64,000 nt of DNA from an uncultured Actinomycetota bacterium. GTDB taxonomy: Bacteria; Actinomycetota; Actinomycetes; Mycobacteriales; Pseudonocardiaceae. The notes under the pieces were generated by a model. That model saw only the letters and a list, made by a program, of their open reading frames with translations. It searched no databases and was not told the DNA's origin. Both the position numbers and the translations under genes were made by a program. The stretch's first letter is position 1; every line of letters starts with the position of its first letter. The stretch spans positions 741,464 through 805,463 of the forward strand of contig CAWGHE010000007.1 of assembly GCA_963822335.1 (NCBI GenBank), given 5' to 3'. Shown one piece after another: positions 3,828 through 22,547 of the stretch.

Positions 3828-4247
3828 ATGGGCGATGTGCTCGCCGAGGGCTACAACGTCTTCGACACCAAGAAGTCGCCGAGCGGGACGGTCAAGTACC
3901 TGGAGTCGCCGGCCGACGTCATCGGTCTGATCCAGTCCGGAAAGCTCGGGGAGCACATCCTGCTGGTGCGGGGCGGTACGACGACGTTCCTCGCCCCGGC
4001 GCTGTCGATGGGGTCCATCGGCGTGATCACGATGTCCGGGGCGCCGGAGTCGCACCTGGGCATCCTGTCGCGCGAGTTCCAGACGCCGTGCGTGATGACC
4101 GCGCACCTGACGTCGAGCGAGTCCCGCTACCTCGTCGGCTCGACCGACGAGTCGCACTTCGTCGAGATCGCCAAGGCGCTGGACGGGCGCAGGGTGCGGC
4201 TGGACTGCACCGACGACGAGACCGGCCGCGTCGTCGCGGACGACTGA
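3828..4247 (+). CDS. Stand-alone PEP-utilizing-enzyme mobile (swivel, phospho-His) domain protein, 139 aa
   Basis: RBS GAGGAGGA precedes the ATG at 3828. HILLVRGGTTTFLAPALSMGSIGVITMSGAPESHLGILSREFQTPCVMT aligns with the PpsA/PPDK swivel motif (...vlVt..t.P.w.p....a.giVT..GG.tsHaAIiaRE.GIPaV). There is no ATP-grasp or TIM-barrel domain in this ORF. Confidence 0.75.
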   Translation: MGDVLAEGYNVFDTKKSPSGTVKYLESPADVIGLIQSGKLGEHILLVRGGTTTFLAPALSMGSIGVITMSGAPESHLGILSREFQTPCVMTAHLTSSESRYLVGSTDESHFVEIAKALDGRRVRLDCTDDETGRVVADD

Positions 4248-4290: not shown

Positions 4291-5726
4291 ATGACAGCGA
4301 CCGAGGGCAAGCGCGCGACGTACAAGGACCGCTACCGAGGAGGCCGACGACGGCCTGCGGTTCCAGGACCTCACCTACACCGGCAACTTCGTCGGCATGG
4401 AGCCCGTCACGGACGGGATCAAGGGCGACAAGATGATGAAGTCGCGCGCCAAGTCGGGCGTGCTGGAGAAGGTGTCCAAGGAGGACGTTCTCCGCGACCG
4501 GTTCACCATCGACGAGCTCAACGATCTGAACAACTACCTGGCCTGGAACATCTGGGACGTGCTGGTCATGCGCGCCACCGAGGGCGTCAGCGGCATGATC
4601 CCCCGCCAGGAGTACGAGATCCTGGCCTTCATGCACGAGTTCTACCGCTGGCCGGAGATCATGGCGCATGACCACGGAGGAGGTCGGCGGCGCCCAGGGG
4701 ATCATGGACATCGGTGCCACGGCCCGCCGGGAGATCGGCACCAAGGTCAACGCGGTGCACGACTGGTGCATCGGTGCGGTCGGCTTCGGCATGGGCCGCT
4801 GCGGACTGCTCGCCCTCGAGGTGATCAAGCCGGACGAGTACGTCGACGAGTCCAACGAGATCCTCAAGTTCATGCAGCGGGTGCTGTGGGGCAAGCGGCA
4901 GGACGGCTACATCCTCAACTCCCAGGACCGCTACCGCTGCCGCATCCACGAGCAGGACTTCCTGGACCAGATCGTCGCCCAGGTCGAGGAGCTGGAGCCG
5001 GACAGCCCCAAGCACCACACGTTCACCCAGTTCAACGCGGCCGCCGAGCTGCTGGCGTTCCTCGACCACTACGACTGCCGGCTCGGGCTCGGCGACACCG
5101 GCCCGTACGAGCTGCCGGACGGCAAGTTGCTGATCCTGCGCGACCTGTTCGTCAACGAGGAGGTCTTCCACTGGAGCGACGTCTGCGAGGACGCGAAGCT
5201 CCCGCACGTCTACTCGCTGGCCCTGATCATCGACCCGGAGAAGATGGGGCTCAACGAGATCCGGGTGAACGACATCTCCACCACGTTCACCCGCCCGAAG
5301 AACTACATCGACGCGATCGTCGGCGGCGCGGTGTTCGCCCGGGAGAAGTGGAACACCCCGATGGGCGAGGTCTACCCGATCAAGATCGACGACCTCGGTG
5401 ACCACATGGGACGCATCCAGCAGGCGACGCTGAAGCTGTACCAGAAGACGGCGAAGATGTGCCGTCGCGACCTGATCTGGAACGGCCAGTACGTCTACTA
5501 CATCGACATGATCCTCCCGCACATGCGGCTGGCCGGGACGTACGAGAAGGCCTGCCGCGACTACGACCTGTGGGAGATCGACCAGCGGGTCGCGAACTAC
5601 TACTACGACATCACCAAGCGCGGGTTCGCGCAGGAGACGGTGCCCAGCAAGATCTTCTCCGGGGCGGGATACCTGCCGTTCCCGGAGGGCGTGAGTCCGC
5701 GCCGGTCGAAGTACCGGGTGCTGTAA
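4291..5726 (+). CDS. Orphan protein of about 477 aa, unknown function; reading frame broken twice in this sequence (near 4330-4336 and 4660-4668)
   Basis: RBS GGGAGA plus ATG at 4291 (MTATEGKRATYKDRY). Coding continues in the +1 frame (TEEADDGLRFQDLTYTGNFVGMEPVTDGIKGDK...EFYRWPEIMA), then in the next +1 frame (MTTEEVGGAQGIMDIG...RRSKYRVL, stop at 5726). It is rich in K, D, Y, I and N relative to its neighbours. I recognise no family. Confidence 0.6.
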
Positions 5727-5803: not shown

Positions 5804-6412
5804 GTGCTGGACAAGACCGACTACGACGTGCTCAACGCCGTCGCGCTGAAGAAGATGGCCTCGGCCGGCGCCGTCGCCGAGACGACCGGGTTGCCCGAGT
5901 CCGACGTGAACGACGCGCTCGAGCGTCTGATCGGGCAGGGGCACGTCCTGGTGGCCGCGGGATCGGCGCTCCCCGCCGACTCCGCCGAGCCCGCCCTGCG
6001 CGAGGCCGCCGTCGAGCGCTACGCGGGGGTCCGGGAGGACGCGGGAGTCGCGGCACTCGTCGAGAAGTTCGAGACGGTCAACATGCAGTTCCTGTCCACG
6101 ATGTCGTCGTGGCAGCAGGTCGAGGTCGGCGGGAAGAAGGTCACCAACGACCATTCCGACCCGGACTACGACGAGAAGGTGATCGCGAGGCTGGACAAGC
6201 TCGTGCAGCGGCTGGCCCCGCTGCTCGATGCGCTCGCCGAGCACGACGCGCGCTTCGCCGGCTACACCCGCCGCTTCGCCGCGGCCCAGCAGGCCGTCGA
6301 CTCCGGGCGGCACGAGATGGTGTCCTCGCCGAGCGCGGACTCGGTGCACAACGTCTGGTTCGAGTTCCACGAGGACCTGCTGCGCACGCTGGGCCGGGAA
6401 CGCACCGAATGA
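5804..6412 (+). CDS. Hypothetical protein with an N-terminal winged-helix-like segment, 202 aa
   Basis: GTG at 5804 preceded by CGGAGG (5791-5796). VLDKTDYDVLNAVALKKMASAGAVAETTGLPESDVNDALERLIGQGHVLV looks MarR/wHTH-like; the C-terminal half is helical. High GC3 in this frame. Confidence 0.6.
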   Translation: MLDKTDYDVLNAVALKKMASAGAVAETTGLPESDVNDALERLIGQGHVLVAAGSALPADSAEPALREAAVERYAGVREDAGVAALVEKFETVNMQFLSTMSSWQQVEVGGKKVTNDHSDPDYDEKVIARLDKLVQRLAPLLDALAEHDARFAGYTRRFAAAQQAVDSGRHEMVSSPSADSVHNVWFEFHEDLLRTLGRERTE

Positions 6413-6419: not shown

Positions 6420-8895
6420 ATGAGCGGTGTCGGCATCTCCCGTGTCCCCGCGCACACGTGGGCGTTCGCCGAGGCCGACGCGGCCGACGTCGCGCGGCTC
6501 GGCGGGAAGGGCGCCGGTCTGGCCCGGATGACGCAGCAGGGCCTGCGGGTGCCGCCGGGCTACGTCGTGGGCACCGAGGCGTGCCGGCGCTACCTCGCCG
6601 ACGGCCGCATGCCGGACGGGCTGGACGCCGAGATCGCGGCCCGTCTGGCGGATCTGGAGGCGGCGACCGGCAAGACGTTCGGCGCCGGCCCGCTGCCGCT
6701 GCTGCTGTCGGTCCGCTCCGGGGCGCCGGTCTCGATGCCCGGGATGATGGACACCGTCCTCAACCTCGGTCTGGGGCGTGACGCCGCGATCGCGATGGCC
6801 CGGGCCACCGGGGACTCCCGGTTCATGGCCGACCTGGTGGTCCGCTTCCACACGATGTACGCCGAGATCGTGCTCGGGGCGCTGGACCCGGGTGCGGACG
6901 TCGGGGACGTCGATCCCGGCGACGATCCCGGCGCCGCCTACGACCGGGTCTGGGCCACGTGCCAGCAGGCCCTCGCCGACGACGGCGACGACCCGGTCCC
7001 GGACGACCCGCGCGCCCAGCTGACCGGCGCCGTCGAGGCGGTGTTCCGGTCCTGGAACACCCGCCGCGCCCGCACCTACCGGGAGCACCACGGCATCGAC
7101 CATGCGATGGGGACCGCCGTCGTCGTGCAGTCGATGGTGTTCGGGAACCTCTCCGAGGACTCCGGGTCCGGTGTGGTGTTCACCCGCAACCCGGTCACCG
7201 GGGAGCCGGGGCTGTTCGGCGAGTATCTGGCGCACAGCCAGGGCGAGGACGTCGTCGCCGGCACCCGCACACCGGATCCGGTGACCGACGCGCTGCCGCC
7301 GGACCTGCTGACCGAGCTGCGCGCGGTCGGTGCGGACCTGGAGCGCTCGCACGGCGACGTGCTCGACATCGAGTTCACCGTGGAGCGGTCCACGCTGTAC
7401 CTGCTGCAGGTGCGCAGCGCGAAGCGCACGCCCGAGGCGGCAGTCCGGATCGCCTCCGATCTCCTCGACGAGAGCGCGGTCGGCGAGGCGGCCGCGCTGC
7501 GGGCCGTGACGTCGGCGCAGGTCCGCCACGTCCAGCGTCCGGGGTTCGACGACGACGAGGTCGCCCAGGCCCGGTCGTCCGGCCGGCTACTGACCGCCGG
7601 CATCGGGGCCTGCCCCGGCCAGGTGTCCGGGACCCTGGTGCTCGACCCGGACCGGGCCAAGGAGATCGCCGACGGTGGCACGCCGGTCGTGCTGGCCCGC
7701 TCGGTGACCAGCCCGGCCGACCTGCACGGCATGATCGCCGCGGCCGGGATCGTCACCGCCACCGGCGGCTCCACCAGCCACGCGGCCGTCGTCGCGCGGG
7801 CGCTGGGTACGACGTGCGTGGTCGGGGCCGGGGCACTGCGCATCGACGAGGGTGCGCGCTCGCTGCACGTCGGCGACCGGGTGCTCGCCGAGGGGGACGC
7901 GGTCTCGCTGGACGGCTCGACGGGCGAGCTGTTCGCCGGCACGTTCGCGACGGCGACCCCGGCCGCGGCGACCGACGCGCTCGCGTCGCTGCTCGGGACG
8001 GCGCGCCGGGTCTCCGGCTGTGAGGTGCTCGGCCGGGTCACGCTGCCCGCCGACGTCGAGCCGGTCCTGGCGTCCGGAGCGACCGGGCTGGTCACCGCCG
8101 TCGACGACGTCCTGGCCGCCACCGGACACCTCGACCTCCCTGGTGCACGGACTGCTGGAGGGCTCGGCCCGCGGACCGGACGAGCTGGCCGACCAGGTCG
8201 CGGCGGGGCTGACGCCGCTGCTCGCCGCGGCGGACGGGCGGGAGGTCGGGGTCCGTGCGATCGACCTGGTCGCCGACGAGGCCCGCGAGCTGCTGCAGCA
8301 GACCGCCGTCACCACCCGGCACCCGGAGCTGTCCGTGCCGCTCGGGCGACCGGAGCTGGTCCGGGCCCAGATCGACGGGCTCGCCCGCGCCGTGCGCGAG
8401 TCGGGGGGACGGGCGCACCTGGCGCTGCGGCACGTGTCCGACCCGGCCGAGGCCGCCGCGCTGCGCCCGCTGGCCGACGGGGCCGGGATCGGGATCGGGA
8501 CGTACCTGACCGCGCCCCGCGCCGTGCACGGGATCGAGGCGATCGCCGTCCACGGCGACGTGTGCTGGATCGAGCTGCGCACGCTGCAGGCGGCGATGAT
8601 CGGCCTGCCGCCGCGGCAGCTGTACACGGCCGAACCGCTGGACGGCTACCTCGCGCGTGGACTGTTCACACTGGACCCGCGGCGCACGCTCGACCCGACC
8701 GTGGCCGAGCTGCTGGCGCGCGCGGCCGCGACCCGGGACCGCCTGCCCGACTGCCGGATCGGCGTGCGGATGTCCGCCAGCGCCTCCGACGAGACGGTCA
8801 CGGCGCTGTACCGGATGGGATTCCGCCGATTCGCCGTGGATGCCGCCGGCAGCCGCCCGCTGCAGCTCGCGCTGGGGCAGGCCGCCGCCGGGTGA
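6420..8895 (+). CDS. Pyruvate,phosphate dikinase-like protein with a degenerate C-terminal domain; frame broken near 8138-8140
   Basis: N-terminal PPDK motifs: LGGKGAGLARM, LLSVRSGAPVSMPGMMDTVLNLGL, GSGVVFTRNPVTGE, DIEFTVERSTLYLLQVRSAKRT. Swivel motif: VTATGGSTSHAAVVARALGTTCVVG. After an extra C in the run at 8138-8140 the frame continues as LVHGLLEGSARGPDEL...LALGQAAAG (ORF 7852..8895). Confidence 0.8.
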
Positions 8896-9170: not shown

Positions 9171-9263
9171 TCGCACGGTCATGCCGGCCCGCGGTGGCGA
9201 GGTGCCGGGTCTCTACGGCGGGTGGCGGCACTGGCCCGGCAGGCACGGTGCAGCCCGCGAGGG

Positions 9264-10346
9264 TCAGGTCGCCGGTCGCAGATCCGGCCGCACGGCGGCG
9301 AGCAGCTCGGCGAGCGATCGGTCGGCGGGATCCGCCTCGGCGAGCGACCCGCCCGGCCGGCGGGTCGACGCTCGGGGGGCGAATCCGGGGGGGCCGGTGC
9401 GGACGGCGCATCGCCCGGTCACCGTCCTGCCACCGTGCCGCGGCGACGCGTCGCCGCCGCCGTCGCGCCGCTCGCCGCCATCGGCCGAGGCGTCGGCAGG
9501 CAGGGCGGAGGACACCGGCGCGCGGTGGACCGGCCCTGGGGACGGGCCCTGAGGAGACGGGCCTGGGGAGGCCGGCGCGGACGAGAGCGACACGGAGGAC
9601 GCCGGCGGAGCAGCGCAGGAGCCCGTCGCACACGCCTTGGTCGGCGGACCGGTGGCGTCGTCGCCGAGCAGGTACGCACCCACCTCCTGCGGCCACAGCG
9701 CGACGAACTCCGCGCCGGCCTCGGTGAGCTCGTCGGCCGAGTGCATCCCCCAGGCCACGCCGATCACCCGGATCCCGACCTCGCGGGCGTCGCGGACGTC
9801 GCCTGCGGTGTCGGTGACCAGCACGGTGCTGGACGGGCCGGGGGACAGCCGGCGGTTGCCCTCGTCGTAGTCGGCGGCGCAGCGGCGGCCGAAGCCGCTG
9901 CCCGCGTCGTCGAGGAACGCGCGGATCGCGGCCCGCTTGTCCGGCGCGACGTCGCCGCCGAACACGTGCGCGAAGCAGTACGCGATGTCGTTGTCCACCA
10001 GCACGCGTCGCAGCACGGCCATCGCGTTCGAGGACATCACGGCGAGCGTGCACTCCGAGGCCAGCCGCCGGACGACGTCCCGCATGCCCGGTACGAGCGG
10101 CGGCGAGTAGTCGCGGCGCAGCAGCGTCAGGAACTCCTGTTTGACCTCCTCGGCGTGCGCGTCGTCGCGGCAGCGCTCGGCCAGCGAGGCGAAGATGTTG
10201 CCGCGGAACAGCGCGAAGAACTCCTCCGGGGAGTCCACACCCAGCCCGTGCCGCCGGTTGACCTGCTCGAAGATCTCCCAGGACGCGATCCGGGTCTGGA
10301 CCAGCGTGCCGTCGAGATCGAAGACGACCGCACGCGTCGGATCCAT
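9264..10346 (-). CDS. HAD-superfamily hydrolase (phosphoglycolate-phosphatase-like) with a ~130-aa Pro/Ser/Ala-rich C-terminal tail
   Basis: Start ATG (complement 10344-10346) within ORF 9264..11285(-). MDPTRAVVFDLDGTLVQT (motif I DxDGT), AVMSSN (motif II), VLVTDTAGDVRDA (motif IV). The start overlaps the stop of the upstream gene (TGATG). Confidence 0.75.
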   Translation of the reverse strand: MDPTRAVVFDLDGTLVQTRIASWEIFEQVNRRHGLGVDSPEEFFALFRGNIFASLAERCRDDAHAEEVKQEFLTLLRRDYSPPLVPGMRDVVRRLASECTLAVMSSNAMAVLRRVLVDNDIAYCFAHVFGGDVAPDKRAAIRAFLDDAGSGFGRRCAADYDEGNRRLSPGPSSTVLVTDTAGDVRDAREVGIRVIGVAWGMHSADELTEAGAEFVALWPQEVGAYLLGDDATGPPTKACATGSCAAPPASSVSLSSAPASPGPSPQGPSPGPVHRAPVSSALPADASADGGERRDGGGDASPRHGGRTVTGRCAVRTGPPGFAPRASTRRPGGSLAEADPADRSLAELLAAVRPDLRPAT

Positions 10347-11338
10347 CACCCGAGCACGGCGTCCCAGATGGCGCCGAGCTCGCCGAGGCCGATGAAGTCC
10401 ATGCACTCGCCGAACCCGGTCCTCCCGTCCAGCGTCCAGCGGTGCAGGCAGTTGTGCCCGACGACGCCGGGCTGGGACTGCCACGGGAACGTGGTCAGGG
10501 CGTTGCCCTCCAGCTCGAACACGGTGTCCCGGGAGTCGGTGACCCGCACCCGGATCCGTTCCGGGTAGAGGCCCTTGCGGTCGGTGACGCCCTCGCCGGC
10601 CTTGAGCCCGTACAGCTGCCCGCCGTCGAGCACGTAGCCGTGCGTGAGGGACAGCGTCGTCGGCGCGTCCGGCCCGTTCTCCGGCTTGTAGTCGAACAGC
10701 CCGTGGAACACCGTCCCGTCCGGGAAGTGCGCGTGCATCCAGGACAGCCGCGACACCTGGCGTTCGGCCCGCACGCCCCAGCTGTGGTCCATCGTGGAGA
10801 TGCAGTCGATCGTCTCGGTCCGGCCGCGGATCGAGATCTCGCCCTCGAACCGTCCACTCTGGTCGAAGTGGCCGGCGTAGGCGTGCCCCCACGTCTTCGC
10901 CATGTCCTTGCCGGCGGCCATCGGGTCCTGGTCCGGGTCGTTGATGTCGTAGGCGTCGTGCAGCGCCGTGTAGCGGAAATGCAGCTCCAGCCCGGCCGCC
11001 GGGTCGGAGTAGTCGACGTCCCATACCCGGTTCGGGTCGCTGCAGTGCACCTTCAGTCCGTTCGCCAGCTCGTAGGAGACCAGGTTCGACGGCTGCGGCA
11101 CGACCAGGTGCTCCCAGGAGTCCCAGTACTCCGCCGCCCACGGCTCGCGCACGCGCCGGCTGTTCACCGAGACCGTCGATCCGACCACGCCGAGCGGCTC
11201 GCGGAACAGGCCGTACACGCCGACGTTCAGCGGGGCGGGACCGTCCTGGCCGGCGTAGAGGCCGAAGTAGTTGGTCTCCGCCCACAGCGGGTCGTCGCTG
11301 GTGGGGGCGTGGAACTGGGCGTCCTCGTCACGGATCAC
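10346..11338 (-). CDS. Conserved-looking hypothetical protein, 330 aa, unknown function
   Basis: GTG (complement 11336-11338) is preceded by GAGGAGGA at 5-nt spacing. VIRDEDAQFHAPTSDDPLWAETNYFGLYAG...STMDHSWGVRAERQ...HNCLHRWTLDGRTGFGECMDFIGLG. High GC3. Coupled to the HAD gene. Confidence 0.65.
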   Translation of the reverse strand: MIRDEDAQFHAPTSDDPLWAETNYFGLYAGQDGPAPLNVGVYGLFREPLGVVGSTVSVNSRRVREPWAAEYWDSWEHLVVPQPSNLVSYELANGLKVHCSDPNRVWDVDYSDPAAGLELHFRYTALHDAYDINDPDQDPMAAGKDMAKTWGHAYAGHFDQSGRFEGEISIRGRTETIDCISTMDHSWGVRAERQVSRLSWMHAHFPDGTVFHGLFDYKPENGPDAPTTLSLTHGYVLDGGQLYGLKAGEGVTDRKGLYPERIRVRVTDSRDTVFELEGNALTTFPWQSQPGVVGHNCLHRWTLDGRTGFGECMDFIGLGELGAIWDAVLG

Positions 11339-11432
11339 CGGGGTCCTCCTCGCGAGCGGCGGTGCGGGGCCTGGCGGACCGGCCCGCGCATCACCCTGCC
11401 CGCCGCCGGGGGGCGTGAACCAGCACACATCC

Positions 11433-11459
11433 GGACAGCGACCGGGCACGACGTTGTCC
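11433..11459. promoter_or_regulatory. Inverted repeat GGACAG-N15-TTGTCC in the divergent promoter region between the orphan/HAD operon and the BMC operon
   Basis: GGACAGCGACCGGGCACGACGTTGTCC. Same half-sites and same 27-nt span as 3665-3691. It lies about 90 nt upstream of the BMC-P start and about 108 nt upstream of the divergent gene start. Confidence 0.5.
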
Positions 11460-11536
11460 CGGCGGGATAAAGCCTCCGCCCGGCGCCCGCTCCTAGCGTG
11501 CTCGTCGAGCCCGACGGGTGTGGGAGGTGACCGGAC

Positions 11537-11836
11537 GTGCAGCTGGCAACGGTGCTCGGCCAGGTCGTCTCCACGGTCAAGGAGCCGGGGCTCGGCCGGT
11601 TCACGCTGCTGCTCGTGCGGGACACCGCCGACGGCGTCCCGGATTCCGACGACGACGGCGGGCCGGGATACGTGGCCGTCGACCTCGTCGGGGCCGGCGT
11701 CGGAGAGGTCGTGCTCGTCGCGTCCGGCGGCGCCGCGCGCGTCGCGGCCGGGGCGGACGCCCCGACCGACCGCGCCGTCGTCGCGATCGCCGACACCGTG
11801 ATCCGGACCGGCACGGTCACCTACCGCAAGACCTGA
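11537..11836 (+). CDS. BMC-P pentameric vertex shell protein (EutN/CcmL/PduN family)
   Basis: RBS GGGAGG (11522-11527) plus GTG at 11537. MQLATVLGQVVSTVKEPGLGRFTLLLVR...YVAVDLVGAGVGEVVLVASGGAAR...AVVAIADTV matches the EutN/CcmL pattern. Confidence 0.9.
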   Translation: MQLATVLGQVVSTVKEPGLGRFTLLLVRDTADGVPDSDDDGGPGYVAVDLVGAGVGEVVLVASGGAARVAAGADAPTDRAVVAIADTVIRTGTVTYRKT

Positions 11837-11851
11837 ACGAGGGAGGACGAC

Positions 11852-12190
11852 ATGGCTGCGACGCCGGGCGGTGCGCCCGCGACGGCGGCCCCCGCGGCAC
11901 CCGTGCTGCGCGGGGCGCTGGGGCTGATCGAGACGAAGGGGCTGGTCGGCGCGATCGAGGCCGCGGACGCGATGGTCAAGGCCGCGAACGTCCAGATCCT
12001 CGGCCACCGGGAGATCGGTGGCGGCCTGGTCACGGTCATGGTGCGTGGCGACGTCGGTGCCGTGAAGGCGGCGACCGACGCGGGCGCCGTCGCCGCGGGC
12101 AACGCAGGCGAGGTCGTCTCCGTGCACGTCATCCCGCGCCCGCACGACGAGACGGAGAGCATCCTCGCGGTCCTCACCCGCCCGAAGTGA
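11852..12190 (+). CDS. BMC-H hexameric shell protein (Pfam00936 type) with a 22-aa Ala/Pro-rich N-terminal extension
   Basis: RBS GGGAGGA plus ATG at 11852. [57 protein letters not shown]...[11 protein letters not shown] is the canonical PduA/EutM/CcmK-like sequence. Confidence 0.92.
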
Positions 12191-13577
12191 TGAGCACCCT
12201 CGACGAGGACCTGGCGTCGCTCGCCGAGGTCCGCCGCAAGGCTCGCGCGGCCCGCCGGGCGTTCGAGGCGGCCGACGGCGCCGACCAGGAGACCCTGGAC
12301 GGCTGGGTGCGCGCGATGGCGCTGGCCGGGACGAAGGCGGCCGAGGAGCTGGCCCGGCTCGCCGCGGACGAGACCGGCTACGGCGTCTACGAGCACAAGA
12401 TCTACAAGAACCGCTACAACACCGGGTTCGTCGCGCGCTGGATGCTCGAGCGGCGCGCGGTCGGTGTGCTGTGGGTCGACGAGGGGTCCCGGGTCACCGC
12501 CGTCGGCACGCCGATGGGGGTGATCGCCGGGATCATCCCGGTGACGAACCCGACGTCGACGGCGCTGTTCAAGAGCCTGGCCGCGGTGAAGTCCGGGAAC
12601 GCGATCGTGCACGCCCCGCACCCGCGGGCCGCGGCGTGCACGCACCGTGCGGCCGAGGTGATGGCCGAGGCCGCGACGAAGGCCGGTGCCCCGGAGGGCC
12701 TGGTCTCCTGCCTGGAGAGCCCGACGCTGCCGGCGACGGCGGAGCTGATGAGCCGCCCGGAGATCGCGCTCGTGCTCGCCACCGGCGGGCCGGGCATGGT
12801 GCGGGCCGCCTACTCCAGTCCGGGAAGCCGACGATCGCGGTCGGTGCCGGCAACGTCCCGGCCTACGTCGGCCGGAGCGTGCCGGACGCGGCCGAGGCCG
12901 CCGAAATGATCATCACGTCGAAGTCGTTCGACAACGGGACGGCGTGCGTGGCCGAGCAGTCGGTCGTCGTCGTCGAGGCGGTGGCGCACGAGTTCCTGGC
13001 GGCGTTCGAGTCCCGCGGCGCCTACTGGTGCAACGCCGCCCAGCAGGATGCGCTCGTCCGCGTGCTGTTCGACGAGCGCGGCGGGCTGCGCCCGGACGCC
13101 GTGGGCCAGACCGCGATCCGGCTGGCCGAGCTGGCCGGGTTCACCGTGCCGTCGACCACCCGGGTGCTCGCCGCCGAGCTGGACTCCGTCGGCCGGGGCA
13201 CCCCGCTGTCCCGCGAGATCCTCGGGCCGGTGCTGTCGGTCTACCGGGTCCGCGACGCCGATGCCGGCTACCGGCGCTGCCGGGAGATCCTGGCGCTCGA
13301 CGGCGAGGGGCACACGACGGCCGTGCACGCGTCCGACCCGGCGGAGATCGCCCGGTTCGGGCTCCTGCCGGCCGGCCGGATCGTGATCAACACGCCCGCG
13401 CTGTTCGGCGGCATGGGCTACTCCACCGACGTCGACCCGTCGTTCCAGCTCGGCACGGGAACCTGGAGCGGCTCGATCTGCTCGGACAACGTCACTCCGC
13501 TGCACTTGATCAACATCAAGCGGATCGCGCACGAGGTCCGCCCGTGGCGCAGCGTCTACGACACGGTCGAGCTGTAG
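12190..13577 (+). CDS. CoA-acylating aldehyde dehydrogenase (PduP/EutE-like); frame broken near 12817-12822
   Basis: The ATG overlaps the BMC-H stop (TGATG at 12188-12192). VGTPMGVIAGIIPVTNPTST, LATGGPGMVRAAYSS then (frame change) GKPTIAVGAGNVP, catalytic-Cys motif SFDNGTACVAEQS, HTTAVHASD. The two halves are ORFs 11518..12909 and 12471..13577. Confidence 0.88.
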
Positions 13578-13579
13578 TC

Positions 13580-14468
13580 GTGGCCACCGTGATCAGCGAT
13601 CCGGCAGCGCAGGCGGACAGATCTGTCCGCCGGCACTGCCGAACGGACGATCATCGAGGCGTGGCGCGGCTGCTCGGGGCCGGCGCGGCCGTGCTGTCCG
13701 GGACGTCGGTCCCCGGCAGCGCGGTCCGGACCCCGGTCCGGGTCGGCGTGGACCTGGGCACGGCCAGCTGCGTGCTCGTCGTGCTGGACGCCGCGGGCGA
13801 GCCGGTGTGGGTGGACGCGCATCCGTCCGGGGCGCTGGCCGACGGCGTGGTCGTCGACTTCGCCCGGGCGATCGCCACCGTGCGGGCGTTGAAGCAGCGT
13901 GCCGTCACGGCCCTCGGGACGGACGACTTTCCCCACGTGGCCACCGCCTACCCGCCGTGCATCCCGGTCGCCGACGCGCGGGCCTGCGCCTACGTGTGTG
14001 AGGCGGCCGGTTTCGGCGAGGTCGCGCTCGTCGACGAGGTGAGCGCCGCGCAGGCCGTCCTGGCGATCGACGACGGCGTCGTCGTCGACGTCGGAGGTGG
14101 TTCCACCGGGGTCGGGGTGTTCGTCGGCGGCGAGCTGGTCGCGCTGGACGACCGCGCCGGCGGCGGTCACCACCTGGACCTGGTGCTGGCCGGGGCGCTC
14201 GGCATCGGCGTCGCGGACGCGGAGCCGCGCAAACGCGAGCACCCCGACGAGTGCCTGCCGATCCTCGTCCCGGGGCTGCAGCGGATCGCCGAGTCGGTGC
14301 GCGCGATGACGACCGACCACCCCGGCCTGCCGCTGCACCTGGCCGGCGGAGCACTGATGATGCCCGGCGCGGACCGGGTGCTCGCCGACCTACCTGGAGC
14401 GATCTGTCGTGACCTACCCGCACGCCCTGCTGATCACGCCGCTCGGGATCGCGGGGTGCGCGACGTGA
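13580..14468 (+). CDS. EutJ-like actin/Hsp70-fold ATPase (BMC-associated chaperone-like protein); frame broken near 14387-14391
   Basis: VGVDLGTASCVLVVLD, VDVGGGSTGVGVF, AGGGHHLDLVLAG. After an extra C near 14389 the +1 frame gives YLERSVVTYPHALLITPLGIAGCAT-stop (TGA 14466-14468), the typical EutJ C-terminus. The start (GTG 13580 or 13589) is uncertain. Confidence 0.75.
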
Positions 14469-15094
14469 GCACGCCGACCCTGCGCACCTACGCGTTCATC
14501 GACCGGATGCAGCCGCAGTGCGCGGCGCACATCGCGGCGACCAGCCCGGGCGACGTGCCGCTCGCCGGCATGGCCGAGCTCTACATCGAGATGGCCCCGG
14601 GCAACGAGGTGTTCCGCGCTGCGGACATCGCGCTCAAGGCGGCCGGCGTGCGCCCGGCGTTGCAGATCATCGAGCGCGAGTTCGGGCTGCTGGAGATCCA
14701 CTCCGAGCAGCAGGCGGAGGTGCTGGCCTCCGGGGAGGCGGTGCTCGCCGAGCTGGGGATGTCCGAGTCCGACCGGATCCGCCCGTCGATCGCGTCGACG
14801 CAGTTCATCACGAACGTGCACCCGTACCAGGCGCAGCTGCTCAACAAGTGGCGCAAGGGATCCATGCTGATGCCCGGGCAGAGCCTGTTCGTCATGGAGG
14901 TCGCGCCCGCGGCCTACATCTCGATCGCCGCGAACGAGGCGGAGAAGGCCGCGGACATCACCGTGATCGAGCTGCGCGCGGTCGGCCGGTTCGGGCGGAT
15001 GTTCCTGTCCGGCACCGAGAGCGACGTGCAGGCCGCGCGGGACGCCGCCGTCGCCGCGCTGGAGGCCATCGACGGGCAGGAGCCGGGCCGATGA
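14465..15094 (+). CDS. BMC-T tandem-domain (pseudohexameric) shell protein, 209 aa
   Basis: The GTG overlaps the EutJ stop (GTGA at 14465-14468). Two BMC-like halves: LRTYAFIDRMQPQ...EVFRAADIALKAAGV...LLEIHSE and TQFITNVHP...AAYISIAANEAEKAADITVIELRAVGRFGRMFLSG. The ORF track fuses it with EutJ in the 716-aa ORF 12944..15094. Confidence 0.75.
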   Translation: MSTPTLRTYAFIDRMQPQCAAHIAATSPGDVPLAGMAELYIEMAPGNEVFRAADIALKAAGVRPALQIIEREFGLLEIHSEQQAEVLASGEAVLAELGMSESDRIRPSIASTQFITNVHPYQAQLLNKWRKGSMLMPGQSLFVMEVAPAAYISIAANEAEKAADITVIELRAVGRFGRMFLSGTESDVQAARDAAVAALEAIDGQEPGR

Positions 15095-16447
15095 CCGTCT
15101 GGTCGGTCGCCGACGTCGAGGCTGCTGCGGCGGGGTCGCGCACCGTGCACGTCAGTGCCCGGGACGTCGTCACCCCGCTGGCCCGGGAACGCGCCCGCGA
15201 GCTGGACGTGACCATCGATGTCGTCGACGGGGCCGCGACCGTGCCCGGGGCCGCGCGGCGCAACAGTGCCGCGCGAGCGGAGCGCTCGTCCGGCGTGCCG
15301 GCGGGCCTCGGCGGTGCGCGGCACTCCGGTCCGGGTGCACGAGCGGAGCGCTCGTCCAACGGGGCCGTGCGAGCGGAGCGCTCGTCCAACGGGGCCGCGC
15401 GGGCGAGCCGCTCGTCCGACCCGAGTGTGGCTCCACCACCGGTGCGACCCCCGTCCGGCGCTCTGTTCCGCCGCGGCGCCCCCCTCCCGGCCGGGCTCGG
15501 GGTGGTGCGAGCGGGGCGGACCGGCCGCGTGGCCGTCGTCGGCGCCGGACACGTCGGCATGATCACCGCGATGCGGCTGGCCGAGGCCGACGTGTTCGAC
15601 GAGGTCGTGCTCGTCGACATCGACGCCGGGCGCGCGGCCGGCGTCGCGCTGGACCTGACGCACACGGCGCCGCTCGCCGGGTTCGCCACCCGGGTGCGCG
15701 GCGTCGGCACCGTGGAGGGGGCGGGCTCCTGCGACTATGCCGTGATCACCGCCGGTCGCCCGCGGCAGCCCGGGATGAGCCGCAGCGACCTGATCGGCAC
15801 GAACGCCGCGATCGTCGGGGACGTCGCGTCCACGCTGGCCGCGACGTCGCCGCACGTCGTCCTCGTCGTCGTGACGAACCCGCTGGACGAGATGACCCAC
15901 CACGCGTGGCGGGCGTCCGGGCTGCCCGCCGAGCCGGGTGATCGGGATGGCCGGGGTGCTGGACACGGCCCGCTTCCAGGCGCTGGCGTCGCTGACCGGG
16001 GCGGTGCGGGCCGACCGGATCGACGCCGTCGCGCTCGGCAGCCACGGCGAGGAGATGGTCGTCCCGCTCTCGCAGGCCGCGGCGGGCGGGCGCCCGCTCG
16101 CCGAGACCGTCGACGGGTTGGACGCGATCGTCGACCGGACCCGCGGCTCCGGCGCCGAGGTCGTCGGGCTGCTGTCGTCCGGGAGCGCGTTCCTGGCGCC
16201 CGGCATGTCCGCGGCGCGGATGGTGCTGGCGATGGCCGCGGACTCCGGCGAGACGATGCCGGCCGCCGTGCTCGCCGACGGGCAGTACGGTATTCGCGAC
16301 GTCTACATCGGACTGCCGGTACGGCTCGGGCGCGACGGCGTCCGCGAGATCGTCGAGATCTCGCTGGCCCCCGACGAGCTCGCCGCCCTGCGCACCGCCG
16401 CCGACCGCATCGCCGAGCGGCTCGCCGACCTCGCTCCGGCCCGGTGA
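15091..16447 (+). CDS. LDH-like malate dehydrogenase-type enzyme with a ~140-aa N-terminal extension; frame broken near 15934-15937
   Basis: The ATG overlaps the BMC-T stop (ATGA at 15091-15094). Dehydrogenase core: VAVVGAGHVGMITAMRLA, ITAGRPRQPGMSRSDL (Arg at the MDH-specificity position), VVTNPLDEMTH, then after an extra C VIGMAGVLDTARF and LGSHGEEMVVPLS. N-terminus: MTVWSVADVEAAAAG...SARDVVTPLARERARELDVTIDVV plus a repeat linker. Confidence 0.8.
15271..15420 (+). repeat. Short in-frame tandem repeats (ARAERSS(N)G units) forming the low-complexity linker of the MDH N-terminal extension
   Basis: GAGCGGAGCGCTCGTCC occurs at 15275-15291, 15341-15357 and 15371-15387, with a degenerate copy at 15401-15417. 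It encodes ARAERSSG...ARAERSSNGAVRAERSSNGAARASRSS. Confidence 0.7.
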
Positions 16448-16451
16448 CCCG

Positions 16452-17487
16452 GTGCGGGCCGTGCTGTACGCCGGTGACGGGCGGGTGAGCGTGGAGCCCG
16501 TCACCGAGCCGGAGATCGCGGAGCCGACGGACGCGATCGTCCGCGTCCGCCGGGCCGCCGTCTGCGGCACCGACCTGCATGCCGTCGCCCACCCGGACGG
16601 GCTGCCCCGCGGCACGATCCTCGGGCACGAGTTCGTAGGCGAGATCGTCGAGACCGGGCCCGCGGTCGTCGGGCACCGGGTCGGCGACGTCGTCGTCGGC
16701 GCGGACTACACGGCCTGCGGGCGGTGCTGGTGGTGCCGGCGCGGTGATCACTGGGAGTGCGCCGAGCGCCGCTTCTTCGGCACCGGGACCGCGTTCGGGC
16801 CTGCGCTGGCCGGATCACAGGCCGAACTGGTGCGCGTGCCGCACGCGGACACCGTGCTCGTGGGCGTGCCCGATGACGTCGACCTGGACACGGCCGTGTT
16901 CCTCGGGCGACACGCTCGCCACCGGGTACGCCGCCGTGCAGCGTGCGGGGCTGCGGCCCGGGGACACGCTCGCCGTCGTGGGTGGCGGTCCGGTCGGTCA
17001 GCTGGTCAGCCTCGCCGCGCAGGCGCTCGGTGCCGGCGTCGTGGTGCTGGTGGAGCCGGTCGATGCCCGGCGGACGCTGGCCGCGGCGGAGGGTGCTGTC
17101 GTCGCGGACCCGGACCGGAGCCGCGACGTCGTCGACCGGGTGACCGACGCCCGCGGCGCCGACGCCGTCGTCGACGCGATCGGCGGCCCGGCCGGACTGG
17201 ACACGGCGTTCGGACTGGTCCGCCGGCGGGGCACGGTCGTGTCGGTCGGCGTGCACACCGCCGCGGAGTGGCCGCTGCCGGTCGCTCGGGCGTTCGCGGA
17301 GGAGCTGACGGTGCGGTTCGCGGTCGGCGACCTGATGCGCGATGCCCCTGATCTGGTCGGTCTCGTCCGTTCGGGTGCGATCGACCCGGCGGTCGTCGCA
17401 TCGGAGCGGATCGGTCTGGACGAGGCGCCCGAGGCATATCGGAAGATGGCCGAGCGCCATACCCTCAAGTCACTGCTCGTGATCTGA
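16452..17487 (+). CDS. Zn-dependent alcohol dehydrogenase (MDR family); frame broken near 16905-16907
   Basis: GTG at 16452. AAVCGTDLH, GHEFVGEIVETG, structural-Zn CGRCWWCRRGDHWEC. After an extra G in the GGG run the frame continues as GDTLATGYAAVQRAG...VVGGGPVGQL...HTLKSLLVI. The halves are ORFs 16452..17351 and 16744..17487. Confidence 0.85.
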
Positions 17488-17508
17488 CCAGCACGAGAGA
17501 GGTAAGCG

Positions 17509-19632
17509 ATGGCGCCATCCGAGCTCGGGACCGCCCTGATGACGGCCGTCGGGACCGGTGGGCTGACACGCCTGCTGCAGACCCGCCCGGACGACCCCCT
17601 CTCCGCTGCCGAGGCACTGGCCGCGGCCGCAGGACGCGAGATCGGTGTCCCGGTCCAGGTGCTCACCGACGACGGGTGGGTGCTGGCCGGCGTGCCATGG
17701 CTCAGCGACGGCGGGGACCGTGTCGACGCCGCGGGGGTCACCGTGCGGTGGTCCGGGGCGACGCGGGCGGTGCCGGCCGACCTGCTGCGCCAGGCGTGCG
17801 TGTGGCTGTCGCTGCTGCGCGAGCGCGCGGCCGCCCGCGAGGAGCTCACGTCGGCCGGTGCCGAGGCCGACTCGATCCGCGACGTCGTCGGGCGCCTGCT
17901 GTCGGTGCGCGACGCGGACCAGGTGCTCCTGTCGGTGGCCGACTGGGTGCTGCGGCTCCTCGACGCGGACATCTGCGGGGTCCTGCTGCGCGAGGGCGAC
18001 GAGGTCCGGATGCGGTCCTGTGTCGGCCACCGCGCCGTCGAGACCTCGCGGCTGCGGATGAAGCGCGGCCAGGGCGTCGCCGGGCTGGTGTTCCTCACCG
18101 GCGAGCCGGCGAAGGTCGACTCCTACCTCGAGGACCGCACGATCAGCCAGGACTTCATGTTCCTGGCCGAGAAGGAGCAGACGTGCTCCGCGCTCGCCGT
18201 GCCGCTGCGCCTGCAGGGCGAGCTGGTCGGCGTACTCGAGGTGTGGCGCCGTCGCGAGTCCGTGTTCACCGCTCGCGACGTCCAGCGGATGGTCACGCTC
18301 GCCGACTTCGCGACGATCGCGATCGACAACGCCCGCCTGCACGACGTGCAGCTGCAGGCCATGGAGAGCGCCGAGCAGGCGCGCGACGCGCTGGCCCGGC
18401 AGATGACCGTGCTGGACCGCGCGGCGCAGCTGCAACAGACGTTGCTCTCGACGGTGGTGCAGGGCGGCGGCCTCGCCGCGATCGCCCGGACCGTGGCCGT
18501 CGATCTCGGCTGCGAGGTGGGCGTCTACGGCCCGGACGGCGGGCGACTCGCCGCGCACTCCGGTCCGCGGCTGGCCAGCACGCTGCCCGAGTCCCTGACG
18601 GCGTCCGGCACCCGCGCCGGGCCCCGGTCCGGCCGGTGGGTCCGGCCGGTGCACGCCGACGGCGACCGCGTCGGTCAGGTCTGCCTGCTGCAGGGCGACC
18701 AGCCCGCCGAGACGATGGACGCCGTGGCCGGGCACGTCGCGATGGCCTGTTCGCTCGCGCTGCTGCGGGAGCGGGCGGCCAGCCGGGCGCGCTCCGAGGC
18801 GATGGAGCAGGTGCTCTGGGACCTGCTGCAGGGCCCGGTCGAGCACCGGCTTGCCGCGCGCACCCGCGCCCAGCAGCTGTCCGTCCCGCTCGGCGGCGCG
18901 CTGCGGGTGGTCTACGGGCAGATCGAGAACATCGGCCGGCTCGCGGCCGAGCAGGGATGGGAGACCGCGCAGTCCGACCGTGTGCGGCGCGACGTGCTGC
19001 GCGCGGTCCGGTGCGCGGACGGCGGCCGCGCGCCGTCGCTCGCCGGCCTGCGCGGGGACTTCCTCGTCGCGATCGCGGCCGACCTCGACCGGGGCGGGGC
19101 ACGTGAGCTCGTCACGGCCGTCTCGGCGGCCGTGCGCGAGCAGTCCGGTGTCCGCCTGAGCTGGGGCGTCAGCCGGGAGCACACCGACGTCGTCGAGCTG
19201 CCGAGCGCGTTGAACGAGGCGCAGACCGCACTGTCCGCGGCGCACCGCCTCGGCGGGGAGAACGTGTTCCTCTACGAGGAGCTCGGGATCGTCCGGCTGC
19301 TGCTGGGTTCCGGGAGCGACCCGGACCTGCAGACGTTCGTCGACGAGGTCACCGGGCCGTTGCTGGCCTACGACAGGGACAACGACGGCTCCCTGATCCG
19401 GACCCTGCGCGCGTTCTTCGACGCCGACTGCTCGCAGCGCGTCGCCGCGGAGCGGTTGTTCGTGCACCACAAGACGTTGCGCTACCGCCTGGACCGGATC
19501 CGCAGGTTGACCGGCCTGGACCTGTCGCGGCACGAGGACCGGATGCGGGCGGACTTCGCCCTGCGGTTGCTGCAGGTCAACCGGTGCGATCCGGAGATGA
19601 CCCACGGCGACGGGCTCACGCGGGAGGAGTGA
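17509..19632 (+). CDS. PucR/CdaR-family transcriptional regulator with a GAF domain, 707 aa
   Basis: ORF 17509..19632(+). GAF-like block: [35 protein letters not shown]...[14 protein letters not shown]...[22 protein letters not shown]-terminal PucR HTH: [44 protein letters not shown]. Confidence 0.85.
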
Positions 19633-19915
19633 TCGACCCTTCGACGACGCCCTCGGTCTCGCCGTGCGGGCGCGGGATGACGTGGCTGGTGTAGAGCTCG
19701 CCGACGGCGCGAGCGGCGGCCGACCCGGCGTCCACGGCCGCCTGCACCGCTCCGACGTCGCCGCGGACCAGCACGGACACCTGACCGTTGCGCAGCGTGC
19801 GGTAGCCCTGCAGCCGCACGTTCGCAGCCTTCACCATCGCGTCCGCGGCCTCGATCGCGCCGACCAGGCCCCTGGTCTCGACCAGACCGAGCGCACCGGA
19901 TCCCGCAGCCGTCAT
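19616..19915 (-). CDS. Second BMC-H shell protein with an atypical pore loop, 99 aa
   Basis: ATG (complement 19913-19915). [64 protein letters not shown]...[10 protein letters not shown]. The 3' end overlaps the regulator's 3' end by 17 nt (convergent). Confidence 0.88.
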
Positions 19916-20031: not shown

Positions 20032-20709
20032 TCAGCGCTGGCCCAGCAGGTTCGTGCGGACGTCGAGCAGGTGCGCGCGCATGTGGTCGCGGGCCAGGTC
20101 GGGGTCGCGTTCGGTGAGCGCGTCGATGATGTCGCGGTGGCTCGTCCGGTAGCCGCCGCGGCGTTCGGGTGTCGAGGTGCGGCGCTTGATGCTGCCCCAG
20201 ACCGGCAGGTCGCGGGCCGCGTTCATCGTGTCGAACAGCCGCAGCAGGAGCGTGTTGTGCGCGGCGACGGCGATGCCGCGGTGCAGGGCGGAGTCCCAGC
20301 CCTCGAAGTCGGCGTACCCGGTGGCCTGCTCGCTGCGGGTCAGGCAGTGGTGCAGGTGGTCGATGTCGGCCTGGGTGGCCTGGCTGGCGGCCAGCGCGGC
20401 GATCTCGGGCTCCAGCAGCAGCCGGGTCTGCATGATCTCGGCCGGGCTCGTCTGCGGTACCTCCTCGGCGGGCGAGCCGGCGGACGTGGCGAGCGAGTCG
20501 GCGACGAACGTGCCGCGGCCGACCTGGCGCACGATCGACCCCTCCCGCTCGAGCACGGCGAGGGCCCCGCGCACGGCGGTGCGCCCGACGCCGAGCCGGT
20601 CGACGAGCGCGCGCTCGGTCGGCAGCTTCGACCCGGCGCTCAGCGTCCCGCTGCGCAGGCCGTCCACCAGCAGCGCCCGCACCTGTTCGCCCGCAGAAAC
20701 CTCGCTCAC
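20032..20709 (-). CDS. GntR-family (FadR/FCD subfamily) transcriptional regulator
   Basis: Part of ORF 20032..20772(-). Likely GTG start (complement 20707-20709) after [47 protein letters not shown] (wHTH) plus an FCD-like helical C-terminus. Confidence 0.85.
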
Positions 20710-20870
20710 CACACCTCCCGGACCAGCGCGACCAATCGCGAACCAATATAGCCGGTCGCGGAGGGCTGACAAGTACCGACCTGGCCGTTAGCCTCGGCAT
20801 CAGGCGCAACCAAAGCCGACCAGAGACATGATTGGTCGGCAATTGGTCGGGAGATCGAGGAGGCCGGGCG

Positions 20871-21743: not shown

Positions 21744-21757
21744 GAGGACGAAACACA

Positions 21758-22519: not shown

Positions 22520-22547
22520 TCCTTTCACCTCGACGAGGAGGTCTTCC

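Follow-up and report, generated by a model that had tools for sequence, protein, structure and literature searches.

The window analysed here is a stretch of 64,000 nucleotides from contig CAWGHE010000007.1 of an uncultured member of the Pseudonocardiaceae, and the subject of this report is the bacterial microcompartment (BMC) locus that it contains. The window has a GC content of ~72%, and its genes were delimited by frame analysis of third-position GC (GC3) together with Pfam, with essentially every GC3-supported open reading frame (ORF) of the 64-kb window being scanned. A preliminary description of this DNA had listed a set of BMC genes between positions 11537 and 19915, and Pfam and GC3 analysis locates all of them at the coordinates given. 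Comparison with related loci shows that the conserved block exceeds this interval, comprising 15 genes over 16 kb (3828-19915). The host of the locus is a Pseudonocardia-like actinomycete.

The shell operon starts on the plus strand with a BMC-P gene of the EutN/CcmL type (11537..11836; PF03319, E = 1e-21) and a first BMC-H gene (11852..12190; PF00936, E = 3e-28), followed by a CoA-acylating aldehyde dehydrogenase (AldDH; 12190..13577; Pfam Aldedh), a EutJ-like ATPase (13580..14468; MreB_Mbl/FtsA) and an intact tandem-domain BMC-T of the CsoS1D/CcmP type (BMC-T-dp; 14465..15094; Pfam BMC). Next on the same strand are an enzyme of the malate/lactate dehydrogenase (MDH/LDH) family (15091..16447; Ldh_1_N/Ldh_1_C), a Zn-dependent medium-chain dehydrogenase (Zn-ADH; 16452..17487; ADH_N and ADH_zinc_N) and an intact GAF-PucR transcription regulator (17509..19632; GAF, GGDEF_2 and HTH_30). 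A second BMC-H gene on the minus strand closes the block (19616..19915, with its start ATG at 19915; PF00936, E = 8e-30). The gene overlaps reported previously, TGATG at 12188-12192, GTGA at 14465-14468 and ATGA at 15091-15094, were found to be correct. The earlier gene list holds as to content; however, the AldDH, EutJ, LDH/MDH and Zn-ADH genes are not single ORFs, as each is split over two frames, and their proteins can be read only after joining at ~12817, 14389, 15931 and 16905, respectively.

The shell set comprises one BMC-P, two BMC-H and one BMC-T-dp. The first BMC-H contains the motifs KAAN and PRPH. Orthologs of the BMC-T carry PF27545 (CsoS1D_N), which identifies it as a T-dp type. 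Against the PDB it scores 214 bits with CcmP, 198 with HO, 173 with CsoS1D and, among RMM proteins, 173 with MSM0275 and 147 with MSM0271. Proteins that share 87-97% identity with it come from Pseudonocardia, Actinomycetospora, Ornithinicoccus and Marmoricola, among other genera. A look-up of its exact sequence, starting with either V or M, retrieved nothing from public assemblies.

The catalytic cysteine of the AldDH, which is conserved in the orthologs, lies in the motif NGTACVAEQ, and after frame joining the protein aligns without gaps to its intact orthologs. Its closest relatives in the PDB are the acetylating acetaldehyde dehydrogenases 5j78 and 3k9d, and also AdhE; profile positions 4-452 of 462 align with residues 25-472 of the 488 of 5j78, with no N- or C-terminal extension. 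The EutJ assignment is supported by an intact Pseudonocardia endophytica ortholog, which passes the NCBIfam EutJ equivalog model. Similarly, an ortholog of the MDH-family enzyme scores 298 bits, above the cutoff of 283, with NF004863, the NCBIfam model for a malate dehydrogenase subfamily. As read by eye, this enzyme retains the arginine of the PRQPGMSR loop, which we take to be the oxaloacetate-specifying Arg102. In all loci, its N terminus consists of a DVVTPLARERARELGV domain of ~45 amino acids, a variable linker of P, A and S residues (~40 to 150 amino acids among orthologs) and a RPPSGALFRRGAPLP motif that sits directly before the Rossmann fold. The published catalogue of BMC loci calls this N-terminal domain EutQ/cupin-like. 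When the region was searched (window 15091-15520 and orthologs), one sequence weakly matched the Pfam E3_binding family of peripheral-subunit-binding domains (E = 0.011) and another gave no match. The GAF-PucR regulator is likewise conserved in all loci, and a relative with 40% identity lies beside a shell-less gene module of Paraburkholderia that is described below.

The preliminary description had also stated that the window contains no PduL/Pta, APH kinase, class III aminotransferase, B12 or glycyl-radical enzyme, or class II aldolase, and the Pfam scan of the GC3-supported ORFs agrees. Moreover, PF01636, PF00202 and PF00106 gave no match among the ORFs scanned.

Six accessory genes precede the shell operon. 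Four are on the plus strand, encoding a small stand-alone phosphoenolpyruvate (PEP)-utilizer, i.e., a phospho-His swivel protein, of 139 amino acids (3828..4247; PF00391), an orphan protein of 477 amino acids (4291..5726), an intact protein of 202 amino acids that is conserved in 30 loci (5804..6412) and a paralog of pyruvate, phosphate dikinase (PPDK) of ~824 amino acids (6420..8895; PPDK_N and PEP-utilizers). The other two, on the minus strand, encode a HAD-IA phosphatase with a low-complexity tail (9264..10346; HAD_2) and an intact DUF7064/DUF7065 protein of 330 amino acids (10346..11338; PF23212/PF23213), with the ATG of the HAD gene overlapping the stop codon of its partner.

The start of the swivel protein, MGDVLAEGYNVF, and its histidine motif, GAPESHLGILSRE, are conserved in all loci. 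The 477-aa orphan has no match in Pfam, NCBIfam or PDB sequences, and its AlphaFold2 (AF2) model (pTM 0.83) retrieved no fold neighbor from the PDB. Its family comprises 424 clusters, in which the source-named members among the 120 listed are all Actinobacteria, and an exhaustive profile search retrieved 285 representatives. Identity to the orphan is 84-99% in the orthologous loci and 69-72% in Paraburkholderia. The 202-aa protein gives only weak, HTH-like Pfam matches below cutoff. In distant relatives, the swivel, orphan and 202-aa proteins are fused in the gene order of the window, with the swivel domain N-terminal to the orphan domain and the 202-aa part C-terminal, and pairwise fusions are also found. 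These fusions suggest that the three gene products belong to a single enzyme with a phospho-His domain and a novel acceptor domain for it to serve; they are the basis for the putative acceptor role of the orphan. One fusion gene is followed by a PPDK-like gene. Another, in a metagenomic context (L061), is surrounded by a P450 system, two APH kinases, a Y_phosphatase3, a weak DUF7065 match, an aldehyde dehydrogenase (ALDH) and an alcohol dehydrogenase.

An ortholog of the PPDK paralog passes the NCBIfam short-PPDK model NF004531 (516 bits versus a cutoff of 456) and stays below the cutoff of the full-length PPDK model TIGR01828 (544 bits versus 843). Residues 16-559 align to solved PPDKs across the nucleotide-binding and phospho-His domains, with the ATP-grasp kept and the catalytic histidine motif GGSTSHAAVVAR retained. 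The C-terminal 270 amino acids form a barely recognizable PEP/pyruvate domain (profile E = 4.5e-4). Aligned to plant PPDKs, the paralog reads YLT.PRA for MIE.PRA and EVRAL for GTNDL, which we take to be the metal and PEP ligand motifs of PPDK (Glu745, Asn768/Asp769 and Cys831 in Clostridium symbiosum numbering). Judged from its sequence, the paralog possesses the ATP-grasp and phospho-His domains of a functional PPDK and lacks the C-terminal PEP/pyruvate motifs.

The AF2 model of the DUF7064/65 protein (pLDDT 92, pTM 0.90) has the 25-phosphosteroid lyase structures 9g4c, 9fzn and 9g2i as its best Foldseek matches (E 3e-12 to 2e-11, probability 1.00, TM 0.62-0.67), followed by AttH and pericyclases. 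A profile built from 38 DUF7064/65 sequences retrieved nothing at E <= 10 from PDB sequences. As a fold-level lead, the protein is a candidate phosphate-eliminating lyase, although fold by itself does not define function.

The nucleophile motif DxDxT of the HAD phosphatase is present as FDLDGT. Its tail, composed of a variable low-complexity linker and a terminal amphipathic helix (DELLAAVRRVC), is conserved in 32 BMC-linked orthologs, whereas the homolog from the shell-less Paraburkholderia module (234 amino acids) ends before the linker and has no tail. The layout resembles that of classic encapsulation peptides, so that the tail may be described as encapsulation-peptide-like. Within the tail (window 9264-9650; orthologs in L003-L037), a Cys-Gly motif, CGCGC(D/G)G, and a poly-Arg stretch, RRERRRR, often precede the terminal helix; they may serve to bind metal or to touch the shell. 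A regular-expression scan of the block retrieved no further terminal helices of the HAD type, with a pattern that was too strict even for the HAD of the window itself. A phosphonate route, with the HAD protein as a PhnX-like phosphonatase, was considered and set aside, the NCBIfam matches being weak and sub-threshold and neither PEP mutase nor the transaminase being present.

Orthologous loci (n = 35) were obtained by scanning a genome collection with an AldDH alignment, and their genes were mapped by tblastn; ~40 related loci were compared overall. The 35 loci span Pseudonocardia, Actinomycetospora, Amycolatopsis, Cryptosporangium, Nakamurella and Actinophytocola, and ~30 of them, from at least six genera, share one invariant gene order. 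It starts on the plus strand with the small PEP-utilizer, the 477-aa orphan, the 202-aa protein and the PPDK paralog. It continues on the minus strand with, sometimes, a Y_phosphatase3 and then the HAD and DUF7064/65 genes, and again on the plus strand with EutN, BMC-H, AldDH, EutJ, BMC-T, MDH, ADH and PucR, before the final BMC-H on the minus strand. Genes outside the 3828-19915 block vary between loci. Recurrent extra genes were sought by analyzing gaps and flanks, which revealed no further recurrent gene and no phosphotransacylase (PTAC) in the 35 loci. The preliminary description had raised the question of whether orthologous loci carry a known signature enzyme or a PTAC just outside the window, and none does within ±10 kb.

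The loci of Rhodococcus and Nocardia are rearranged: their BMC operon converges with the dikinase genes rather than lying downstream of them, and all of the parts stay together. In front of the dikinase module, these loci (L056, Rhodococcus sp. ACS1; L057, Nocardia jiangxiensis) carry a second ALDH, a Zn-ADH and an AMP-binding ligase, an arrangement that matches the shell-less operon of Paraburkholderia. Genes for three phage-type integrases, a reverse transcriptase and a transposase HTH flank the N. jiangxiensis locus, a hint that it may be mobile.

The operon of Paraburkholderia terrae encodes DUF7064/65, HAD, small PEP-utilizer, orphan, a 191-aa protein and PPDK paralog beside a GAF-PucR regulator, and continues with a Zn-ADH, an ALDH and an AMP-forming (AMP-binding) acyl-CoA ligase. 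No shell, EutJ or MDH gene lies within ±10 kb of it, and its ALDH is only 28% identical to the AldDH of the actinobacterial loci. Given this shell-less operon, the six accessory genes appear to constitute a self-standing catabolic module, with downstream neighbors that act on alcohols, aldehydes and acids, that is coupled to the compartment in Actinobacteria. In P. terrae (L059, 14389-16910) the PPDK paralog is present as two overlapping ORFs of 277 and 573 amino acids, with the break near residue 272-275 in the numbering of the actinobacterial protein, which may be a natural split between ATP-grasp subdomains or a frameshift.

The nearest match, with ~85% nucleotide identity, is P. endophytica, in which SMFZ01000002.1 contains two complete paralogous blocks, at ~0.87 Mb (L001/L003) and ~1.70 Mb (L002/L005), with BMC-Ts that are 97% and 91% identical to that of the window. 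A CoA-transferase A/B pair and a Y_phosphatase3 are attached only to the second block. The pair was considered as a substitute for PTAC and discarded, being present only in this paralogous locus (L002 = L005) and not recurrent. In Pseudonocardia sp. CNS-139 (L033, MKJX01000170.1, ~7400-17700), the EutN, BMC-H, AldDH, ADH and PucR genes give multi-frame matches, MDH was not detected and there is no upstream dikinase module; the copy, which comes from a 124x SPAdes assembly, appears to have truly decayed.

Taken together, the gene content assigns the locus with high confidence to MIC1 (metabolosome with incomplete core 1), a type described by Axen et al. 2014 (PMC4207490) and Sutter et al. 2021 (PMC8217296), the latter listing 45 loci. 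Like MIC1, it belongs to an actinobacterial host, its closest proteins and loci being from Pseudonocardia, Actinomycetospora and Amycolatopsis. It has the MIC1 shell, with two BMC-H proteins, a single BMC-P and one BMC-T-dp, as seen from the Pfam matches, PF27545 in the orthologs and the PDB matches to CcmP and CsoS1D, and a pfam00171 AldDH without an encapsulation peptide. A phosphatase (HAD) and an MreB/EutJ-like protein are present, and PTAC and signature enzyme are absent from the window and the 35 loci. The dehydrogenases are a Zn-binding enzyme and an LDH/MDH-pfam enzyme with the BMC-specific N-terminal extension that Sutter et al. 2021 (PMC8217296) ascribe to the pfam02866 protein in both MIC2 and MIC1. 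In addition, Rhodococcus sp. ACS1, Nakamurella DSM 44233 and Pseudonocardia DSM 43832 carry the label bmcType=MIC1 in the tree files of the catalogue. The window shares with Rhodococcus sp. ACS1 83% identity in the BMC-T and 78% in the AldDH, the latter over the 174 residues that were available. Nothing in the locus differs in kind from MIC1, the copy in the window being set apart by its seven frameshifting insertions.

The locus type is thus already published, and the absence of a signature enzyme and PTAC belongs to the definition of MIC1. The view that this is an unrecognised kind of BMC, which the preliminary description was prepared to give up should the locus fall inside an established type, is not supported. 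MIC1 is catalogued but not functionally characterised; a search of the accessible literature for functional work on it gave only the catalogue paper and its preprint. In the portions of text available from the two catalogue papers, the PPDK paralog, the swivel protein, the 477-aa orphan and DUF7064/65 are not mentioned as MIC1 components.

Compared with intact orthologs, six genes of the block contain seven frameshifts, namely, two +1 events in the 477-aa orphan (~4336 and 4667), one +1 event each in the PPDK paralog (~8137), EutJ (~14389), LDH/MDH (~15931) and Zn-ADH (16905) and a +2 event in the AldDH (~12817). An eighth break (~40834) lies 21 kb past the block end in an unrelated MFS transporter (40234-41528), which is split over two plus-strand frames; its junction, ACG GCG·C·TTC TTC, has an extra C after a codon, as in the breaks of the block, which suggests that the assembly has a systematic mode of error. 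All eight breaks are insertions, with no nonsense mutations or deletions, and the joined frames have no internal stops. The seven single-base insertions are all C (P ~7e-4) and can all be placed after a complete codon, in the contexts TAC·C·GAG, GCG·C·ATG, CTC·C·CTG, GAC·C·TAC, GAG·C·CGG, GGG·C·GAC and GCG·C·TTC. At three of the +C sites, orthologs have G or C at the same synonymous position, as though the two alleles had been entered one after the other, and the +2 event (TCC·AG·TCC·GGG) looks like a merger of the Ser codons AGC and TCC that are found among orthologs. With P. endophytica as the reference, the ratio of nonsynonymous to synonymous substitutions (dN/dS) lies at 0.14-0.29 in five broken genes and at 0.07-0.31 in the intact ones other than the HAD gene, which aligns poorly and gives 0.46.

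These breaks are likely to be consensus or assembly artefacts rather than traces of recent inactivation, and the locus is therefore probably functional in the organism. The alternative is that they are real and that this MIC1 copy was recently inactivated and is decaying, possibly tolerated through a second paralogous copy, for which the two paralogous loci of P. endophytica provide a plausible redundancy and the apparently degraded L033 locus, in its 124x assembly, a precedent. The distribution of the breaks speaks for this alternative and against an artefact: seven of the eight fall within the 25% of the window taken up by the block, an approximately fivefold over-representation (P = 4e-4), and by the GC3 method alone the count is five of six (P = 5e-3). 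A uniform sequencing error rate does not predict such a concentration. A duplicated or strain-heterogeneous region might explain it, by analogy with the two paralogous copies in P. endophytica. Real inactivation is nevertheless the less probable reading, given that the dN/dS values of the broken genes lie within the range of the intact ones, that all eight events are insertions, seven of them of the same base at a codon boundary, that several look like two synonymous alleles in tandem and that the same signature recurs in an unrelated gene 21 kb beyond the block. Multi-frame matches also occur in other assemblies of metagenome-assembled genomes (L008 and L012). A dead pseudogene cluster, an outcome that the preliminary description had left open, is for the same reasons unlikely: the dN/dS values, the lack of nonsense mutations and the uniform +C insertions all speak against it. 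The systematic +C signature makes the underlying assembly unsuited for calling pseudogenes.

The preliminary description had proposed the neighboring dikinase operon and the orphan/HAD pair as candidate partners of the compartment. This proposal is strongly supported by the invariant order in ~30 loci, by a linkage that survives rearrangement and by the existence of a shell-less version, and the accessory module is probably the functional partner, or signature, of the MIC1 compartment. On balance, and with moderate confidence, a MIC1 metabolosome in which the accessory module generates the aldehyde is the explanation that fits best overall.

How the aldehyde would be made is a more tentative matter. 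A possible route is suggested by the PPDK paralog, which keeps the ATP-grasp and the catalytic histidine while its acceptor motifs are replaced, and by the lyase-like fold of the DUF7064/65 protein. The PPDK paralog would use ATP to load its phospho-histidine, from which the phosphoryl group would pass through the swivel domain(s) to a hydroxyl of the substrate bound by the orphan 477-aa/202-aa enzyme. Elimination of phosphate by the DUF7064/65 protein would then leave an enol or alkene, from which the aldehyde would arise by tautomerisation. The shell would retain the aldehyde and the AldDH would turn it into acyl-CoA, with NAD+ regenerated by the MDH-type dehydrogenase, the Zn dehydrogenase or both. 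Inside the compartment, the HAD phosphatase with its encapsulation-peptide-like tail would clear stray phosphoester. Such phosphorylate-then-eliminate chemistry, taken specifically, is put forward as a speculative assignment. The same caution applies to the fuller statement that MIC1 might enclose an undescribed aldehyde route, in which PEP-utilizer-type phosphotransfer with a new-fold orphan acceptor phosphorylates a small alcohol or diol and a DUF7064/65 lyase eliminates phosphate to give the enol and then the aldehyde.

Several points weigh against this interpretation. The link between the accessory genes and the BMC comes from genomic comparison. The phospho-lyase assignment follows from fold similarity, at 16-17% identity and with no profile signal, and the fold also houses AttH, CrtC-type hydratases and pericyclases. 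The orphan showed no recognizable active site or fold relative in sequence and fold searches, and in the scan of the block no accessory protein except HAD and MDH had an obvious encapsulation signal. Finally, the proposal leaves the recycling of CoA without a PTAC unexplained.

This last point could be met if the module had a different role, replacing PTAC and acetate kinase: the orphan would convert acyl-CoA to acyl-phosphate, the PPDK paralog, working in the ATP-forming direction, would take up the phosphoryl group and CoA would be recycled. MIC1 lacks any PTAC, and PduL, as a PTAC of unrecognised fold, offers a precedent. PPDK can moreover run in reverse, making ATP at the expense of a high-energy phosphoryl donor. 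This reading is nonetheless improbable, because the Paraburkholderia module occurs without shell genes or an acylating AldDH. Its ALDH (28% identity) and AMP-forming acyl-CoA ligase call for no step from acyl-CoA to acyl-phosphate, and the constant presence of a lyase-like protein and phosphatases fits phosphoester chemistry better.

The generation of the aldehyde by the accessory module also has to be weighed against the view, close to that of the preliminary description, that the locus is of the RMM type. As an RMM1 microcompartment for aminoacetone or 1-amino-2-propanol (aminoacetone utilisation, AAUM), the genes for its kinase and phospholyase would have to be located in another part of the genome. 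The likeness holds loosely: the order P-H-AldDH-EutJ-T resembles that of RMM, the catalogue places the MIC1 AldDH beside MIC2 and then RMM1, and RMM1 and MIC1 occur together in three genomes. It does not extend to the signature enzymes, as an APH-type amino-propanol kinase, phospholyase, SDR and permease are all missing from the window ORFs scanned and no recurrent extra genes accompany the 35 loci. Nor does it extend to the shell, which has a single BMC-T-dp instead of two different ones, with higher scores to CcmP and HO (214 and 198 bits) than to the RMM proteins MSM0275 and MSM0271 (173 and 147 bits). The locus has a conserved accessory module of its own, and the catalogue implies that most MIC1 genomes are without RMM enzymes, co-occurrence being rare. 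An RMM1-type compartment is accordingly very improbable.

Equally hard to sustain is the reading of the dikinase genes and HAD/DUF7064 pair as ordinary neighbours, e.g., a gluconeogenic PPDK, with no link to the compartment: the PPDK paralog does pass an NCBIfam "pyruvate, phosphate dikinase" model and the genes are absent from the available text of both catalogue papers, but synteny is invariant in ~30 loci while the true flanks vary, linkage is kept through rearrangement, the motifs for the PEP/pyruvate ligands are replaced, the HAD tail is found only in BMC-linked loci and the same regulator family stands beside both the BMC and the shell-less versions.

Downstream of the block, the window contains a GntR-FCD regulator, FAA hydrolase, alpha/beta hydrolase, amidohydrolase, DUF1636 protein and mycothiol maleylpyruvate isomerase (20032-25000), which look like a gentisate or aromatic ring-cleavage pathway. 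This neighborhood is shared only with the first P. endophytica locus and is therefore not part of MIC1. For these flanks, with their FAA hydrolase, maleylpyruvate isomerase (MDMPI) and amidohydrolase, the aromatic (ARO) BMC type was considered and rejected, ARO being without BMC-T and having a different AldDH; the flanks are shared with one P. endophytica locus only. Farther on, two very long ORFs overlap on opposite strands (29659-33729). Pfam resolves them into a SARP/BTAD-AAA regulator on the plus strand (30604-33723) and an HTH_67 protein on the minus strand (~29659-30480), which occupies only the 3' part of its long ORF. At 56785-61494, a row of genes encodes the alpha and beta subunits of a Rieske dioxygenase, a GATase and a glutamine-synthetase-like protein. 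The arrangement recalls aniline/arylamine dioxygenase clusters, and a GntR regulator is located upstream on the minus strand (56230-56991).

The value of these observations lies less in the locus itself than in a testable hypothesis on the missing chemistry of MIC1, which has been without a proposed substrate or chemistry since 2014, and on an orphan enzyme family. Its testable elements are a six-gene module tied invariantly to the shell operon, the shell-less counterpart in Proteobacteria, the three-gene fusions, the fold-level link to a phosphate-eliminating lyase and the encapsulation-peptide-like tail on a phosphatase. If the proposed chemistry holds, MIC1 would represent a third independent solution to aldehyde supply in metabolosomes, next to the B12 or radical dehydratases and the aldolases, with RMM1 as a parallel case. 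As its signature it would have an "ATP-dependent dehydratase" that tolerates oxygen and needs neither B12 nor a radical, with an encapsulated HAD and malate/oxaloacetate-type NAD+ recycling in place of the canonical alcohol dehydrogenase and PTAC. An orphan family that spans a few hundred sequence clusters and has no fold relative would thereby acquire a function as well.

Among the known BMC types other than MIC1, MIC2 has the closest AldDH: Sutter et al. 2021 (PMC8217296) place the MIC1 AldDH next to that of MIC2 and then, as regards characterised types, nearest to RMM1. MIC2 has an MDH-family enzyme with the same BMC-specific N-terminal extension, a BMC-T-dp of the same major clade and a minimal shell. 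However, it is mostly proteobacterial and has one BMC-H, together with a 6-phosphogluconate-dehydrogenase-like protein and a glutamine synthetase, neither of which is found in the block of the window. RMM1/AAUM, known from Mycobacterium and Rhodococcus, is likewise actinobacterial, has a similar order of its core genes and lacks PTAC. It shares the proposed logic of a kinase that forms a phosphoester, a lyase that produces an aldehyde by eliminating phosphate and an acylating AldDH that consumes the aldehyde. The proteins are unrelated: where RMM1 uses an APH-type kinase and a class III aminotransferase-like phospholyase, the block encodes a PEP-utilizer-type phosphotransfer system and a DUF7064/65 beta-barrel protein, and it has no counterpart of the second BMC-T-dp, SDR, permease and GntR of RMM1.

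Outside the BMC field, a kinase and a lyase jointly perform an "ATP-dependent dehydration" of the steroid side chain (PMC8449060, PMC7411048, PMC11061730). The 25-hydroxysteroid kinase and 25-phosphosteroid lyase of Sterolibacterium denitrificans (PMC8449060, PMC7411048) provide the lyase fold that is closest to the DUF7064/65 model, and the L061 context, with its APH-type kinases and P450, is also reminiscent of this system. Nevertheless, the lyase has only 16-17% identity to DUF7064/65 and no profile-level sequence match, and the steroid system employs an APH-type kinase instead of a dikinase, is not encapsulated and yields an alkene instead of an aldehyde. The proposed phosphotransfer resembles the PPDK/PEP synthase family, with which it has in common the ATP-grasp, a phospho-His swivel with a TSHAA motif and the passing of a phosphoryl group to a third domain that is specific for the substrate. 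The multi-component offshoots of this family include phenylphosphate synthase and rifampicin phosphotransferase, the former being a precedent for a system made of several polypeptides. In contrast to these enzymes, the MIC1 paralog has lost MIE.PRA and GTNDL, and a second, stand-alone swivel protein would serve an acceptor domain of ~410 amino acids without a relative in sequence or fold.

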